From UHGV virus genome UHGV-1362809: DNA of 64,000 nucleotides. The stretch is one strand, 5' to 3'. The position numbers and the translations under genes were made by a program. This DNA is from a virus. Shown here in pieces: positions 4,983 to 13,794 of the stretch. The notes under the pieces are model-generated. The model was not told the origin of the DNA and made no database searches. It saw only the letters and a list, made by a program, of their open reading frames with translations. Position 1 is the stretch's first letter. Every line of letters begins with the position of its first letter.

Positions 4983-5537
4983 CTACAAGGTGGCATAATC
5001 TTGAAAATTTTCCAGCCTATACAAAAACCTTAGTTTTTCATAATCATTAGACGCATTTATGTATTGTTTATTTATATTTCTAGTTGTATATAAATAATAT
5101 GCATCTAAGAAATACACATTACACGTAGACAATAAAGTATCTAACGCTTTTGTTGTTGGGTTGTCCATAACCACTAATAACATACCATCATGCCCTTTTA
5201 TTATAATGCCTCCTTTTTTTAAAAATACTTCAGTTAATTTAATAGCATTAGTATTATTATTTAGAACTTTATAATAGTGACAAATAAATTCAAGATGATC
5301 TACACTATCCGTAGTTATAAAGTTTCCGTCACTAAATATATACCCACACTTATTTTTTTTTGTTTTATTACTTAGCTGTTCTTCTACTGAGCATCTATTA
5401 TTCCACAAAAGTTCTGCGTATTCCTCATTATCACATTCGACTTTAACAGTTAATCCTTCTCCTAAACAACCCATACATTGTATAATATTACCATGGTTAG
5501 AAGGAAGTTTTCCACAGAAAGGACATGGCTTTAACAT
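4983..5537 (-). CDS. Lar-family zinc-ribbon protein (restriction-alleviation-like N-terminus) with a ~110-aa C-terminal extension
   Basis: The N-terminus MLKPCPFCG...IQCMGCLGEG...VEC...AELLWNNR matches the Lar family signature (LKPCPFCG, a second CxxC, WNxR). ATG start confirmed. Confidence 0.5.
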   Translation of the reverse strand: MLKPCPFCGKLPSNHGNIIQCMGCLGEGLTVKVECDNEEYAELLWNNRCSVEEQLSNKTKKNKCGYIFSDGNFITTDSVDHLEFICHYYKVLNNNTNAIKLTEVFLKKGGIIIKGHDGMLLVVMDNPTTKALDTLLSTCNVYFLDAYYLYTTRNINKQYINASNDYEKLRFLYRLENFQDYATL

Positions 5538-6577
5538 GTTAGAATACCTCTTATTTTTTCTAAATCCCTTATAATGTCTACAGGGTCTTCTAATCCTATA
5601 CTTAATCTTACTATCAAATTCCCTTCGTGTTTAAATATTGATCCTACTGTAAATGGGGCACCGAAAGTATCTCCAAACTGTATAACTTCAAAAGAGTTCA
5701 CTATATTTTTATACACTGGTTCCATTGTATTTGTCTGTATGACTATATAAATTAGCCCGCACCTACTATCAGAGGATATTTTTGCCCTGACAGATAATAA
5801 ATACTTCTTTACTGTCTCTGTTGTACTTTTGATTCTCTCCATTCTTAATGGCAATGTGGCTATTCTAATCTGTGCCAAATAGCAGTCAACAGGATTGGGA
5901 GATATTCCCATTACTCTTATTATATTTCCGTATCCCTTTTCTTCCTGAAGATCTACATCCTTAGAAACTATAGCTCCTAACATACAATTATTATGACCAC
6001 TTACATATTTTGCCAGTGACTCTACAACAAAATCTGCACCATCATTTAAGGGATTATAATTATAAATATTTAATATGCTATTATCGATGCAGAGTTTTGA
6101 ATTATGTCCATGTATGTAGGTGCTTAATTTTTTAATATCTGGAGTATATAAAGAAATTGATCTCATGGAGTCTATAATGATAAGGGAGTTTTGTATATTA
6201 TGTTTTGTAAGTTCCTCCTCACTATCTAAATAAACGCATCTATATTGTTGAAGTACTTGAGTTACTTCACTGTAAGTACCTATTACATATATTGTTGAGA
6301 AACTCTTTGCTAGCACATAAAAAGCTGATACTCCCGAACAACACACCACACAATTTTCTACTGGTACTTCATATAAACTTGCCACAGTGGCAGTAAGAGC
6401 TTTTACATTCGGCACCATATTTTTACTACATCTACGATAGGCAATTTCATAATTTCCCAGTTCCATTGACCTTAGATATTCCTCTTTACTCTTAAAACTG
6501 TTATTTAGATTTACAGTGTTTGGAATTAAGGTCTCACTATATATAGATGGGGATACACAACGAGAAGAAAATTTCAA
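5531..6577 (-). CDS. PLP-dependent enzyme of the Cys/Met-metabolism family (cystathionine gamma-synthase / beta-lyase / methionine gamma-lyase fold)
   Basis: The PLP-lysine motif SLAKYVSGHNNCMLG matches S.TKY.GGH.D...G. The C-terminal RLSIGLEDPVDIIRDLEKI matches the family hallmark RLSVGIED.DLI.DL. NPLNDGADFVVES matches NP.....DI. TTG start with GGAG 8 nt upstream. Confidence 0.65.
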   Translation of the reverse strand: MKFSSRCVSPSIYSETLIPNTVNLNNSFKSKEEYLRSMELGNYEIAYRRCSKNMVPNVKALTATVASLYEVPVENCVVCCSGVSAFYVLAKSFSTIYVIGTYSEVTQVLQQYRCVYLDSEEELTKHNIQNSLIIIDSMRSISLYTPDIKKLSTYIHGHNSKLCIDNSILNIYNYNPLNDGADFVVESLAKYVSGHNNCMLGAIVSKDVDLQEEKGYGNIIRVMGISPNPVDCYLAQIRIATLPLRMERIKSTTETVKKYLLSVRAKISSDSRCGLIYIVIQTNTMEPVYKNIVNSFEVIQFGDTFGAPFTVGSIFKHEGNLIVRLSIGLEDPVDIIRDLEKIRGILTC

Positions 6578-7429
6578 TTATATTACTCCAAATTCTTTAT
6601 TTATATCACATATAAAACAAGTGTTATTACTACTATATTTTTTAAAATTTATAGAATGTCCACATGTAGCCCTCTCGCAAGAACAATAAATAAAAGTATT
6701 CTTTTCCTTGTCATAATAATTAAGGACACGAGGCTGAATTATATTAATATTTGGTATATACTTAGATAAATATGTTGAATCCTGTTTTTGTACGCATCGT
6801 AAGGCCTTAAATATATGAGACTGGTCGCAGCATAAATTTTTATTATATACTATATATGGAAGTAAATTAACCCAGCAACAATGTTCTTTTTGAAATTTAG
6901 CAACATCAAAAGTATTATCTAATATACTATTACAAGTCTTTTTTGTTAGAATAGTATTACAGACTACATTAAAACCACGGGAAACTACGTAGTCCATATT
7001 AGTCAACATTAGGTCTCTGTCTTCCTGACATTTAAATCTTCCATCTAAATCATAGGAGGTAGTAAACTTTATACGAGGGAAAACATCTTCAAATGTATCT
7101 AAAAAAGTAATCAAACAACGTGTGTCTTTATATATTAAATTTGTATTTATGTATAACAAGTCAATTACATTTACACATAGCAAAGTTTTTATTTTGCTCC
7201 AAAAGTTTTTAAGTATATGCTCGCAATTATTATTGTCAAATAGTTCTCCTCCTACTATAAGAACGTGACTGCCTTTAATATAAAGGTTAGAATTAATATA
7301 GTCTATGACACACTGCAGACTTTGTTCCTTTTGTTTTAAACTTAGTAATCTTGGGTGTTCCCTCTGAAAACAAAAGGAACAATTATTGTTACAGTTATCC
7401 CATATTAAAAATTCATATATAGGTTTCAT
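6578..7429 (-). CDS. Radical SAM protein, paralog 1 of 4 (with C-terminal Cys cluster)
   Basis: CX3CX2C = CNNNCSFC. VGGELF resembles the GGE SAM-binding motif. TSYDLDGRFK is shared with the paralogs. C-terminal CSCERATCGHS...CFICD. Confidence 0.7.
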   Translation of the reverse strand: MKPIYEFLIWDNCNNNCSFCFQREHPRLLSLKQKEQSLQCVIDYINSNLYIKGSHVLIVGGELFDNNNCEHILKNFWSKIKTLLCVNVIDLLYINTNLIYKDTRCLITFLDTFEDVFPRIKFTTSYDLDGRFKCQEDRDLMLTNMDYVVSRGFNVVCNTILTKKTCNSILDNTFDVAKFQKEHCCWVNLLPYIVYNKNLCCDQSHIFKALRCVQKQDSTYLSKYIPNINIIQPRVLNYYDKEKNTFIYCSCERATCGHSINFKKYSSNNTCFICDINKEFGVI

Positions 7430-12548: not shown

Positions 12549-12557
12549 TAATTTCTC

Positions 12558-13193
12558 CTATATAATCATATAGGCTATGTATACACTACTACTAGAACTA
12601 CTACTACTAGAACTACTACTAGAACTACTGCAGCTACTACTAGAACTACTACAAGCCACCTGAATAGACGTTACTATTTTGTGCATATTAAGGACATTAC
12701 CGCACAAATTAGATATTTCATTAATTCTCGCTAATAAATAGGCAGACTGAATATTTCCAATATCCTTTAAGCCGCCACCAATGGTTAAATAATTAGCCGG
12801 ATTCTTATTATAAAATACTGAGATGTGGCTATTAACTCCTGCTGACACAAAAACTATGCGTGTGGTCAAAAAACTGGCTATATTATTCATTAAGTACAAT
12901 AAATTTTGAACCGTAATTAGGTCGTCGTCTAAAAAGACAATACCCCTAGAACTTAAAAAGTCCAAAAGTTGAGATTCTACTGTACTGCTGGGAACTACTA
13001 CTGCAAGGTTATCAGTAACAGTTGCTGTTATAGTTTGTTTACTTCCCTGTGAAATAACATAAGTGGAACCATTCCGTAAAGAAATATCTACAGAAGAAGA
13101 AAAGGAATCGATATTATGACATATCGTTTTTATGTATTTTTTTACCTCAGATATTACTTGAGAAAAAGTAATCAAATTTGACTTATCAACCAT
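12558..13193 (-). CDS. Hypothetical protein with C-terminal poly-Ser/Cys tail (..ACSSSSSSCSSSSSSSSSSSSSSSVYIAYMII)
   Basis: ATG confirmed. The C-terminal 24-residue Ser/Cys run is encoded by an imperfect (ACT)n microsatellite. The N-terminal domain has a weak hhhhDD-hxT signature (IVFLDDDLITV). Confidence 0.5.
   Translation of the reverse strand: MVDKSNLITFSQVISEVKKYIKTICHNIDSFSSSVDISLRNGSTYVISQGSKQTITATVTDNLAVVVPSSTVESQLLDFLSSRGIVFLDDDLITVQNLLYLMNNIASFLTTRIVFVSAGVNSHISVFYNKNPANYLTIGGGLKDIGNIQSAYLLARINEISNLCGNVLNMHKIVTSIQVACSSSSSSCSSSSSSSSSSSSSSSVYIAYMII
12585..12656. repeat. Imperfect trinucleotide microsatellite (ACT/AGA)n, about 22 units, encoding the poly-Ser tail
   Basis: actactactagaactactactactagaactactactagaactactgcagctactactagaactact. 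Confidence 0.9.
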
Positions 13194-13794
13194 TTTCAGT
13201 TCCTTTTAAGTTCTCTGCAAACAGGTTTATTAAATTAAGGCTTATTGCTTTATTAATTAAAAGACAATTAATATAGTAGGCTGAGTCCTCTATATAGTAG
13301 TCCGGAATTTTTTCCATACCAGAGGTACTAAGTATTCCACATAAAGTTTGAAAATCATATTGTTCAAATATTTGTGCGTATAATGGAGACAATGTTTTTA
13401 CAGTGTCCATAGGAGAAAAAAAGTTTTTATCATAGGAGCACAATAAACTAATAAATTTAGACGCTAATTCCTTAGAAACTTCCTCCAATTTATCTTTCAT
13501 AAGAATTCTTATTTCTATAAATTGGTCTAAGTCCTTAATAAATACTAAAGGATTATTAAAAAAACTATCATCTAAAGAATTATATGTTTTTATTAGATTA
13601 ACTAAATTTGAAATAAAAACTTGGTTTATGTTGTTACTATCTGACAAAAATAAGTCTAACGCATAAATAATGTACTCTGTGGGTAAATTTTTTAAGGAAA
13701 CTTTGGCATCCTTGCACTTTAGTATAGGAAGTAATTCCTGTTTTAAAGTGCCCTTTTCTATATCAGAATTAAAAGTAATAATATCCCTTGACAT
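13186..13794 (-). CDS. Hypothetical protein (202 aa)
   Basis: ATG confirmed. Overlaps the downstream gene by 8 nt. No motif recognised. Confidence 0.45.
   Translation of the reverse strand: MSRDIITFNSDIEKGTLKQELLPILKCKDAKVSLKNLPTEYIIYALDLFLSDSNNINQVFISNLVNLIKTYNSLDDSFFNNPLVFIKDLDQFIEIRILMKDKLEEVSKELASKFISLLCSYDKNFFSPMDTVKTLSPLYAQIFEQYDFQTLCGILSTSGMEKIPDYYIEDSAYYINCLLINKAISLNLINLFAENLKGTENG

Follow-up and report, generated by a model that had tools for sequence, protein, structure and literature searches.

A cassette of four radical-SAM paralogs in the late operon of an uncultured jumbo phage: a possible maturation system for a co-encoded poly-serine-tailed protein

We analyzed a 64,000-nucleotide stretch of the virus genome UHGV-1362809, hereafter called the window, all the genes of which lie on the minus strand. 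Our interest was in a cassette at positions 5531-13794, where four paralogs of the radical S-adenosylmethionine (rSAM) enzymes, termed rS1 to rS4, are grouped with two proteins related to pyridoxal phosphate (PLP) enzymes (PLP1 and PLP2), an orphan domain (u7426) and three small proteins (TrioA, TrioB and TrioC). The open reading frames (ORFs) listed in a preliminary description of this DNA were all confirmed in their position and on the minus strand. In the direction of transcription, the cassette comprises the following features.

13186..13794, minus strand: TrioA, 202 aa, first gene of the conserved module; its homologs lie directly upstream of the module in nearly all loci
12558..13193, minus strand: TrioB, 211 aa, candidate substrate, an orphan alpha/beta domain at residues 4-185 followed by a disordered tail
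12585..12653, minus strand: poly-Ser/Cys tract of TrioB, residues 181-203, C-S6-C-S15, 23 residues encoded by (AGT/TCT)n
12561..12584, minus strand: C-terminal octapeptide VYIAYMII of TrioB, conserved in homologs
11967..12548, minus strand: TrioC, 193 aa, a paralog of TrioB without the tail (BLASTP against TrioB, E 9e-8)
11067..11966, minus strand: rS4, 299 aa, triad CKNGCDFC, no C-terminal Cys/His motif
10144..11067, minus strand: rS3, 307 aa, triad C13-x3-C17-x2-C20, C-terminal C278-G-H...C286...C293-x2-C296
9200..10147, minus strand: rS2, 315 aa, triad CNSKCSFC, C-terminal C286-G-H288...C301-x2-C304
8229..9200, minus strand: PLP2, 323 aa, putative fold-type-I PLP-like protein (Aminotran_5, 24.9 bits for a cut-off of 21.5)
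7426..8241, minus strand: u7426, 271 aa, orphan domain with homologs in sibling cassettes and fusions to rSAM domains
6578..7429, minus strand: rS1, 283 aa, triad CNNNCSFC, C-terminal CGH...CFICD
5531..6577, minus strand: PLP1, 348 aa, TTG start, diverged PLP enzyme of the Cys/Met-metabolism (trans-sulfuration) family, PF01053

Pairwise BLASTP comparisons of rS1 to rS4 gave E-values of 1e-4 to 1e-20 for identities of 20-28%, and residues C13, C17, C20, G60-G61-E62, S125-x-D127 and R131-F132 are invariant in the four-way alignment. The proposal that the four genes arose by duplication is thus borne out, and the duplication is old. Indeed, each paralog has its own ortholog elsewhere, at 35-67% identity and hence closer to it than the other paralogs are, which indicates that the duplications predate the split of the phage lineages. 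Among orthologs, rS3 is the most conserved (51-70% identity), followed by rS2 (41-61%), rS1 (35-51%) and rS4 (33-38%). The CX3CX2C triads previously read in these genes are invariant in the four proteins, with the correction that the triad of 10144..11067 is C-CND-C-AF-C and starts one residue before the 'CNDCAFC' initially proposed. Whether these cysteines are conserved in homologs had been put forward as a check, and the triad was found in 114 of the 118 distinct family members from the related loci described below; of the other four, two are truncated where their contigs end and the remaining two belong to fusion proteins lacking the N-terminal part.

The scores of rS1 to rS4 against the Pfam family Radical_SAM (PF04055), 19.1-23.8 bits, are below the gathering cut-off of 29.5. 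A partial (beta/alpha)6 TIM-barrel fold and the GGE SAM-binding motif are present in the paralogs, and both rS2 (E 1.3e-11) and rS1 (E 3.3e-7) match PHROG 1802, annotated as a radical SAM domain-containing protein. The four proteins thus form a diverged radical-SAM family, recognized by motif and fold and not by the Pfam cut-off. None of them reached the cut-off of a characterized family: they matched neither the SPASM model TIGR04085 nor any maturase model, and missed the cut-off of TIGR03942, the model of the anaerobic sulfatase-maturating enzymes (anSME). Their best sequence-level matches are weak ones to viperin, namely NCBIfam viperin_w_prok (E 2e-4 to 6e-4), viperin in the PDB (E 0.04), pVip in PADLOC (at most 22.9 bits) and the viperin model NF038283, for which 19-21 bits, to be compared with a cut-off of 180, cover the N-terminal 60 residues and hence mainly the cluster-binding region. 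At the level of the fold, the top matches include anSME and SkfB, which are the nearest, as well as viperin, BlsE and MoaA. The second cysteine motif noticed at the C-terminus of three of the four proteins also stands: C-x-H...C-x-x-C is kept in 17/17, 20/21 and 38/47 orthologs of these three paralogs, and in 2 of the 28 orthologs of rS4. This site comes after the barrel and then a beta-hairpin, a position in which it looks like a reduced, twitch-like Zn or Fe-S site.

A profile search with the four paralogs retrieved 690 proteins, nearly all of about 315 residues, the largest contigs carrying them being of 200-290 kb. We compared about 40 loci (about 25 distinct contigs) taken from ENA, NCBI, Logan, IMG/VR and contigs of metagenome-assembled genomes (MAGs) of GTDB, and annotated them with family hidden Markov models (HMMs). 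Gene content is kept across these loci, and order largely so. The conserved core consists of TrioA, TrioB and TrioC, of 4 to at least 9 rSAM paralogs, usually of PLP2 and sometimes of u7426, and the usual order is TrioA, TrioB, TrioC, rS1, rS4, PLP2, rS3 and one to three copies of rS2. In these loci, which were found via the rSAM gene, the Trio genes stand directly upstream of the rSAMs in nearly every lineage. In one lineage (L005, L009) there are even two Trio sets, each adjoining a different rSAM subset. The highest copy number is that of one contig, with at least nine intact rSAM genes in a 39-kb stretch (L030 and L033). Sibling cassettes also hold extra rSAMs that score above the SPASM-domain cut-off, with anSME, HxsB, PapB and DynA as best matches, and one of them encodes a methylthiotransferase of the MiaB/MtaB/RimO family. 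The unknown ORFs, treated as bystanders in the preliminary description, thus turn out otherwise, the three small upstream proteins and u7426 showing the tightest linkage to the rSAMs. Neither megablast of the cassette nor tblastn of rS2, rS3 and TrioC against 50,697 deposited phage records returned anything, and no account of such a cassette turned up in the literature, in agreement with the novelty initially claimed for it. The module, built on a new rSAM family, is widespread but undescribed, and the jumbo phages that conserve it form a clade of uncultured viruses from gut and rumen.

Further small genes are conserved in the sibling cassettes (L001:10962-11438, L005:10954-11454 and L001:12391-13014). 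Among such genes are one for a protein of about 160 residues located after rS2 and one for a 207-residue protein that contains a G-S-C-C-G-H motif and faintly matches TYW3. No counterpart of these genes was noticed in the window, where no search aimed at them was made. Several cassette-bearing contigs, of 245-283 kb (L026, L027, L031) or shorter, have been deposited within bacterial MAGs, the labels of which conflict (Bacilli, Succinivibrionaceae, Muribaculaceae, Bacteroides, Oribacterium and Senegalimassilia). Since these labels are mutually inconsistent, MAG taxonomy was rejected as evidence of the host, and the contigs are probably mis-binned phage.

Of the three Trio proteins, TrioA had no match in Pfam, PHROG or the PDB or by motif, and PDB sequence-profile searches gave nothing useful for TrioB and TrioC either. 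TrioC neighbours TrioB in most loci, and TrioB can be described as a TrioC-type domain extended by the poly-Ser/Cys tract and the octapeptide. In the AlphaFold2 model of TrioB (predicted local distance difference test, pLDDT, 77.5), the alpha/beta domain is folded and the tail is disordered; the modelled domain found no fold match in the PDB or in BFVD. An exhaustive HMMER search defined a TrioB/TrioC family of 324 cluster representatives, where a word-indexed profile search had given only 4. The tract followed by the octapeptide is present in 42 of the 151 family sequences examined, with a tract of 7-29 residues containing 0-6 cysteines, and the C-terminus is conserved in 10/10 aligned TrioB homologs, the family consensus of the octapeptide being x-[FY]-[IV]-[AGVI]-[YF]-[MF]-x-[ILVM]. 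The linkage was also tested independently, starting from the tail. When the IMG/VR DNA was searched for the tail pattern alone (Ser-Ser-Ser-x-F-I-A-Y-M-x-I-stop), all 12 sites retrieved were within TrioB genes, and an rSAM-family gene was found at most about 1 kb beyond 11 of them, the twelfth locus ending too early. With its disorder, its variable length and its conserved end, the TrioB tail looks like a core peptide. In P0132 and P0126, two other members of the family, a C-terminal glycine-rich domain (ALK_LTK_GRD/Gly_rich_2) replaces the tail, and a gene with the same kind of glycine-rich domain is located among the fibre genes of the sibling locus L002. This hints that the N-terminal domain common to the family could anchor a variable, exposed C-terminal part. 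Tract length also varies in frame among close relatives, as the 91-94% identical homolog P0123, from a separate metagenome contig, has five serines fewer.

The orphan domain u7426 gave no family or PDB match in searches of Pfam, PHROG, NCBIfam and PDB sequence profiles. Its homologs occur in up to about five copies in sibling cassettes, and in two independent contigs the domain is found N-terminal to a complete rSAM domain in a single protein (L030:8855-11077, 740 aa; L035:8806-10908, 700 aa). Two further ORFs join it to an rSAM domain without the triad. These Rosetta-stone fusions show that u7426 is functionally tied to the rSAMs and that the two act together. We also considered u7426 as a P-loop kinase of the 5-hydroxymethyldeoxyuridine (5-hmdU) type and ruled this out, as it had no match to a P-loop kinase and no P-loop was noticed in its translation. 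The kinase-like motifs Y-K, D-Y-A and L-L-D-D-S-D have no profile support and are not claimed.

The two PLP proteins, first presented as equal partners, differ in their distribution: PLP1 was found in this phage lineage alone, while PLP2 belongs to the widely conserved module. The assignment of PLP1 to the trans-sulfuration family is upheld by 112 bits for Cys_Met_Meta_PP (PF01053, cut-off 27) and by its motifs, as the translation contains the Lys of SLAKYVSGH, the Asp of CIDNS and the carboxylate-binding Arg of RLSIGLE. PLP1 thus shares the Lys, Asp and Arg motifs of MetB, MetC, methionine gamma-lyase (MGL) and cystathionine gamma-lyase (CGL), and keeps the residues required for a free amino-acid substrate. 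Unlike these enzymes, however, it missed the NCBIfam equivalog cut-offs (440-690 bits; cystathionine gamma-synthase (CGS), cystathionine beta-lyase (CBL), CGL, MGL and O-acetylhomoserine (OAH) sulfhydrylase), its best score being 82.6 bits, and its nearest homologs outside its own phage lineage are at most 31% identical. In the deposited phage records tblastn retrieved only distant trans-sulfuration-type genes (at most 36% identity), the few annotated ones being metC, metZ or O-succinylhomoserine (thiol)-lyase, with possible host contamination. Because none of the sibling loci has a counterpart and its relatives are so distant, PLP1 is a lineage-specific addition. In this lineage alone, it probably serves the rSAM reactions by providing or recycling a sulfur or methionine metabolite.

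PLP2 had been described as cysteine-desulfurase-like, and this does not hold. Its match to Aminotran_5 is shared by none of the other six of the seven family members tested, and a PDB profile search found no sequence match. Aligned by hhalign with Escherichia coli IscS (a sequence identical to that of 1P3W), PLP2 gives a weak (E 0.057) match that is in register, E-H corresponding to TEH104, LDAVQ to HVD180ATQ183 and GTAH-A183 to SGH205-K206. Compared with the class V enzymes IscS, NifS and SufS, PLP2 retains the large-domain His and Asp motifs and lacks both the Schiff-base Lys and the catalytic Cys: in the register of this weak alignment, the Lys position is occupied by Ala or Ser in all 12 homologs showing the motif (T-[ATS]-H-[AS]), and the seven-sequence family alignment contains no invariant Cys. 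A role as a cysteine desulfurase feeding Fe-S assembly was ruled out on these grounds, and a faint match to SspA was too weak to use. PLP2 is nevertheless encoded in most sibling cassettes. It may be a scaffold, or a protein of the pyridoxamine phosphate (PMP) type like the lysine-less sugar dehydratases, of which ColD and E1 are examples. Altogether, the profile searches upheld the folds first assumed to unequal degrees, fully for PLP1, weakly for PLP2, and below the family cut-off for the rSAMs.

The cassette is part of a late operon, co-directional with the tail-fibre genes, as had been described. Its genes are separated by -13 to +9 nucleotides and are translationally coupled, and with such gaps a hidden precursor gene would not fit in it. 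Upstream are genes matching Phage_tail_fib (18072-19985, minus strand) and Mtd_N (15195-16247, minus strand) in Pfam, and the operon is closed by a strong terminator preceded by one more gene:

4983..5537, minus strand: last gene of the operon, an ORF of 184 aa with an N-terminal CPFC...C..C motif
4951..4976, minus strand: strong intrinsic terminator, an 11-bp stem (7 GC pairs) and then ATTTTTTTGT

A portal (57937-59940, minus strand) and a large terminase (60221-63751, minus strand) show that the window comes from a tailed phage. The portal is about 37% identical to those of jumbo myoviruses such as Rhizobium phage RHph_N46, PaBG and Yoloswag, a distant relation. Contigs of 237 kb from metagenomes carry an identical rS2 protein and the gene order of the window, which indicates that the genome is that of a jumbo phage. 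The GC content of the cassette is 27-30% (window positions 6001-14000), compared with 33-40% in the flanking structural genes.

On this basis, we propose that the cassette is a RiPP-like (ribosomally produced and post-translationally modified peptide) rSAM maturation system acting on the co-encoded, poly-Ser-tailed TrioB, a tentative reading to which we would give a probability of about 45%. Each rSAM paralog would bind a [4Fe-4S] cluster through its CX3CX2C triad and cleave SAM to the 5'-deoxyadenosyl radical, which would take a hydrogen from the Trio proteins encoded alongside. Among these, the tail of TrioB would be the likeliest target, in either its Ser/Cys tract or its aromatic C-terminal peptide, and TrioC is possibly modified as well. 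The diverged paralogs could catalyze different steps or act on different sites, with u7426 and PLP2 serving as subunits for recognition or accessory functions. Among the possible chemistries are the anSME-type conversion of Ser or Cys to formylglycine, epimerization, and thioether, cyclophane or aromatic cross-links. What favours a modification of TrioB is the two-way linkage between Trio and rSAM genes, the lack of room for a hidden precursor, the tail that resembles a core peptide and the presence alongside of SPASM enzymes from classes known for peptide or protein substrates. The comparative evidence thus sides with the modification of the adjacent Ser/Cys-rich protein, one of the hypotheses initially listed. 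The product of the modification probably belongs to the virion or is associated with the fibres, given the late operon, the adjoining fibre genes and the glycine-rich domain of some TrioB/TrioC-family members.

Several observations weigh against this proposal. All the links between the genes are associations, and the best matches of the rSAMs in the PDB, NCBIfam and PADLOC sequence searches are those to viperin, weak as they are, the window's own four enzymes being without a SPASM match. Profile scans of the cassette found no PqqD-like RiPP recognition element, no leader peptidase and no ABC exporter. TrioB, with its conserved tail, adjoins the rSAM genes, yet it is a folded protein of about 200 residues; by their size, TrioB and TrioC greatly exceed typical precursors and may instead be structural neighbours. 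Moreover, no Trio gene was found within 10 kb of the rSAM-rich locus L031, and in one lineage the cassette adjoins SbcCD-like genes and not fibre genes.

A parallel can be drawn with known rSAM maturase cassettes, among which we considered anSME, the SPASM/twitch RiPP maturases SkfB, CteB, PapB and SuiB, and the uncharacterized His-Xaa-Ser (HxsABCD), CXXX-repeat and Cys-every-fifth systems. As in these, one or several rSAMs adjoin a protein with a low-complexity or conserved C-terminus as presumed target, the nearest folds are those of anSME and SkfB with a post-barrel beta-hairpin followed by a Cys-containing site, and true SPASM enzymes occur in the siblings. On the other hand, only the C-x-H...C-x-x-C site is present here, and is missing from rS4, a cassette contains 4 to at least 9 paralogs, the candidate substrate is a folded protein of orphan fold, and the genes are phage-encoded within a late structural operon. 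Another parallel is with the proteusins, such as polytheonamide, in which a large leader domain precedes a core that is acted upon by several rSAM enzymes. TrioB likewise has a large structured N-terminal part before a candidate C-terminal core, and several rSAMs would share one substrate. However, the nitrile-hydratase-like or Nif11-like leader, the B12-binding domain and the LanM-like dehydratase of proteusins are not present here, and the fold of TrioB has no relative in the PDB or BFVD. One could go further and imagine that the rSAM array rewrites the poly-Ser/Cys tract, and perhaps the F-I-A-Y-M peptide, of a fibre-associated protein into a non-proteinogenic polymer, which could consist of formylglycine runs (possibly aminated with the help of PLP2), of alternating D-Ser or of a thioether or cyclophane ladder. 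Such a polymer would be the first case of a virion component modified post-translationally by radical SAM enzymes, and the paralogs of the family, growing to at least nine per genome, would serve to diversify the chemistry. We consider this extended version doubtful.

Other explanations can be considered for the same genes. An unlikely one, although it deserves attention, is a small-molecule pathway in which the rSAMs would work with PLP1, PLP2 and u7426. Its product, for instance a modified nucleoside, an amino-sugar or something resembling a cofactor, would be used free or attached to the poly-Ser tail. Such an attachment is known from microcin E492, where a siderophore moiety is linked to a Ser-rich C-terminus. 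The presence of viperin, BlsE and MoaA among the top fold matches is in line with this idea, several paralogs could take charge of successive steps, and PLP1 retains the Arg for binding a free amino acid by its alpha-carboxylate; the pairing of an rSAM with a PLP-type enzyme is also classical in amino-sugar pathways, as in DesI/DesII and BtrN/BtrS. However, the cassette gave no match to a glycosyltransferase, ligase, kinase or nucleotidyltransferase family, PLP1 is encoded in no sibling cassette, the catalytic Lys is missing from PLP2, and the strict linkage of Trio and rSAM genes would be unexplained unless the product ended on TrioB. Synthesis of modified nucleotides by viperin-like rSAMs, with a different nucleoside triphosphate for each paralog, for host takeover or counter-defence, would agree with viperin and prokaryotic viperins being the best sequence matches, and we regard it as very improbable. 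These matches are mainly confined to the N-terminal cluster-binding region and lie far below the viperin cut-offs. In addition, the C-terminal Cys/His metal site, the linkage to Trio proteins and the fusion to u7426 have no counterpart in viperins, the partners of which are different, and the late timing and the paralog array inside a phage structural operon also set the cassette apart. The PADLOC matches to pVip, SspA and PDC-S19 were all too weak to use.

A hypermodification of phage DNA or RNA was the first hypothesis of the preliminary description, and it could take the form of a thymidine-type pathway with an rSAM isomerase and a PLP decarboxylase, of phosphorothioation or of tRNA modification. 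PLP1 and, less certainly, PLP2 are of fold type I, whereas TrpB is of fold type II. It is TrpB that the PLP decarboxylase of phage ViI matches (PMC8989533). The hypermodification clusters of phages M6 and ViI do combine phage-encoded rSAM and PLP-dependent enzymes, which in M6 jointly modify DNA, and they need in addition a 5-hmdU DNA kinase and the amino-acid:DNA transferase aGPT-Pplase (PMC8989533). This defining pair was undetected in the cassette and in the 40 window ORFs scanned, so that the thymidine version of the hypothesis fails; moreover, the M6 and ViI clusters have a single rSAM resembling spore photoproduct lyase instead of an array of four. A MiaB/MtaB/RimO-family enzyme in one sibling cassette, the faint SspA match of PLP2 (14.8 bits) and a nearby SAM lyase gene, suggestive of an interplay with host restriction, speak for nucleic acids, but a position in a late operon beside fibre genes would be unusual for DNA modification and the window contains no tRNA genes. 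We therefore find this explanation quite improbable as a whole. Finally, one would wonder whether the cassette could simply be a chance collection of unrelated auxiliary metabolic genes, for Fe-S or sulfur housekeeping or for an enzyme resembling the ribonucleotide reductase (RNR) activase. PLP1, as a lineage-specific gene of the trans-sulfuration family, and the lower GC content of the cassette would fit such an origin. It is largely refuted by the synteny in about 40 loci and the u7426-rSAM fusions of other phages, to which are added the translational coupling and the failure of every rSAM paralog to reach the cut-off of a characterized family, so that it is hardly credible.

If the maturation of TrioB by the rSAM array proves true, it would be the first radical-SAM system to mature a structural protein of a phage, and it would define a new rSAM family so far found only in uncultured gut and rumen jumbo phages, as judged from the 690 profile matches. 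The paralog expansions of this family resemble host-range arms races. The enzyme set and its candidate substrate are defined (TrioB with its tail, the four rSAMs, u7426 and PLP2) and hence directly testable. Two puzzles for enzymology are a conserved PLP-fold-like protein without a Schiff-base lysine and an orphan domain naturally fused to rSAMs.

Several observations concern the surroundings of the cassette. On the 237-kb contigs, a gene for an S-adenosylmethionine lyase (PF23780) is located a few kb from the cassette (L020:20368-20948, L021:20367-20948), just beyond position 1 of the window and on the strand opposite to the cassette. A SAM lyase and four SAM-dependent radical enzymes in one phage implies that they are separated in time or space, and one would wonder how a phage reconciles the destruction of SAM with radical reactions that depend on it. 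The last gene of the operon, 4983-5537, was earlier labelled 'Lar-like', a label without support as Pfam gave no match even at E 0.1, the Lar family included. In the near-identical contig L020 its counterpart is broken into ORFs of 73 and 66 residues (L020:14611-15164), and judging from this split the gene may be dispensable. Downstream of the terminator (2980-4902, minus strand), ORFs 3659-4213 and 4213-4902 are paralogous (E 1e-5) and 2980-3636 is a possible third copy; none of them has a Pfam match. A second strong terminator, bidirectional, is located at 1990-2015.

In the fibre region, the protein encoded at 15195-16247 matches Mtd_N, the N-terminal domain of the major tropism determinant (Mtd), with 28.8 bits; in Bordetella phage, diversity-generating retroelements have Mtd as their target. 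The large terminase, of 1176 residues, matches its PHROG in three separate stretches and contains an unrelated insert at about residues 506-663, possibly a domain insertion or an intein. A homing-endonuclease/HNH protein is encoded at 46058-47416 (minus strand). The structural gene block also includes an FtsK/SpoIIIE-like ATPase of 921 residues (32780-35545, minus strand), and a UvdE-type UV endonuclease (105 bits) is encoded at 52872-53909 (minus strand).

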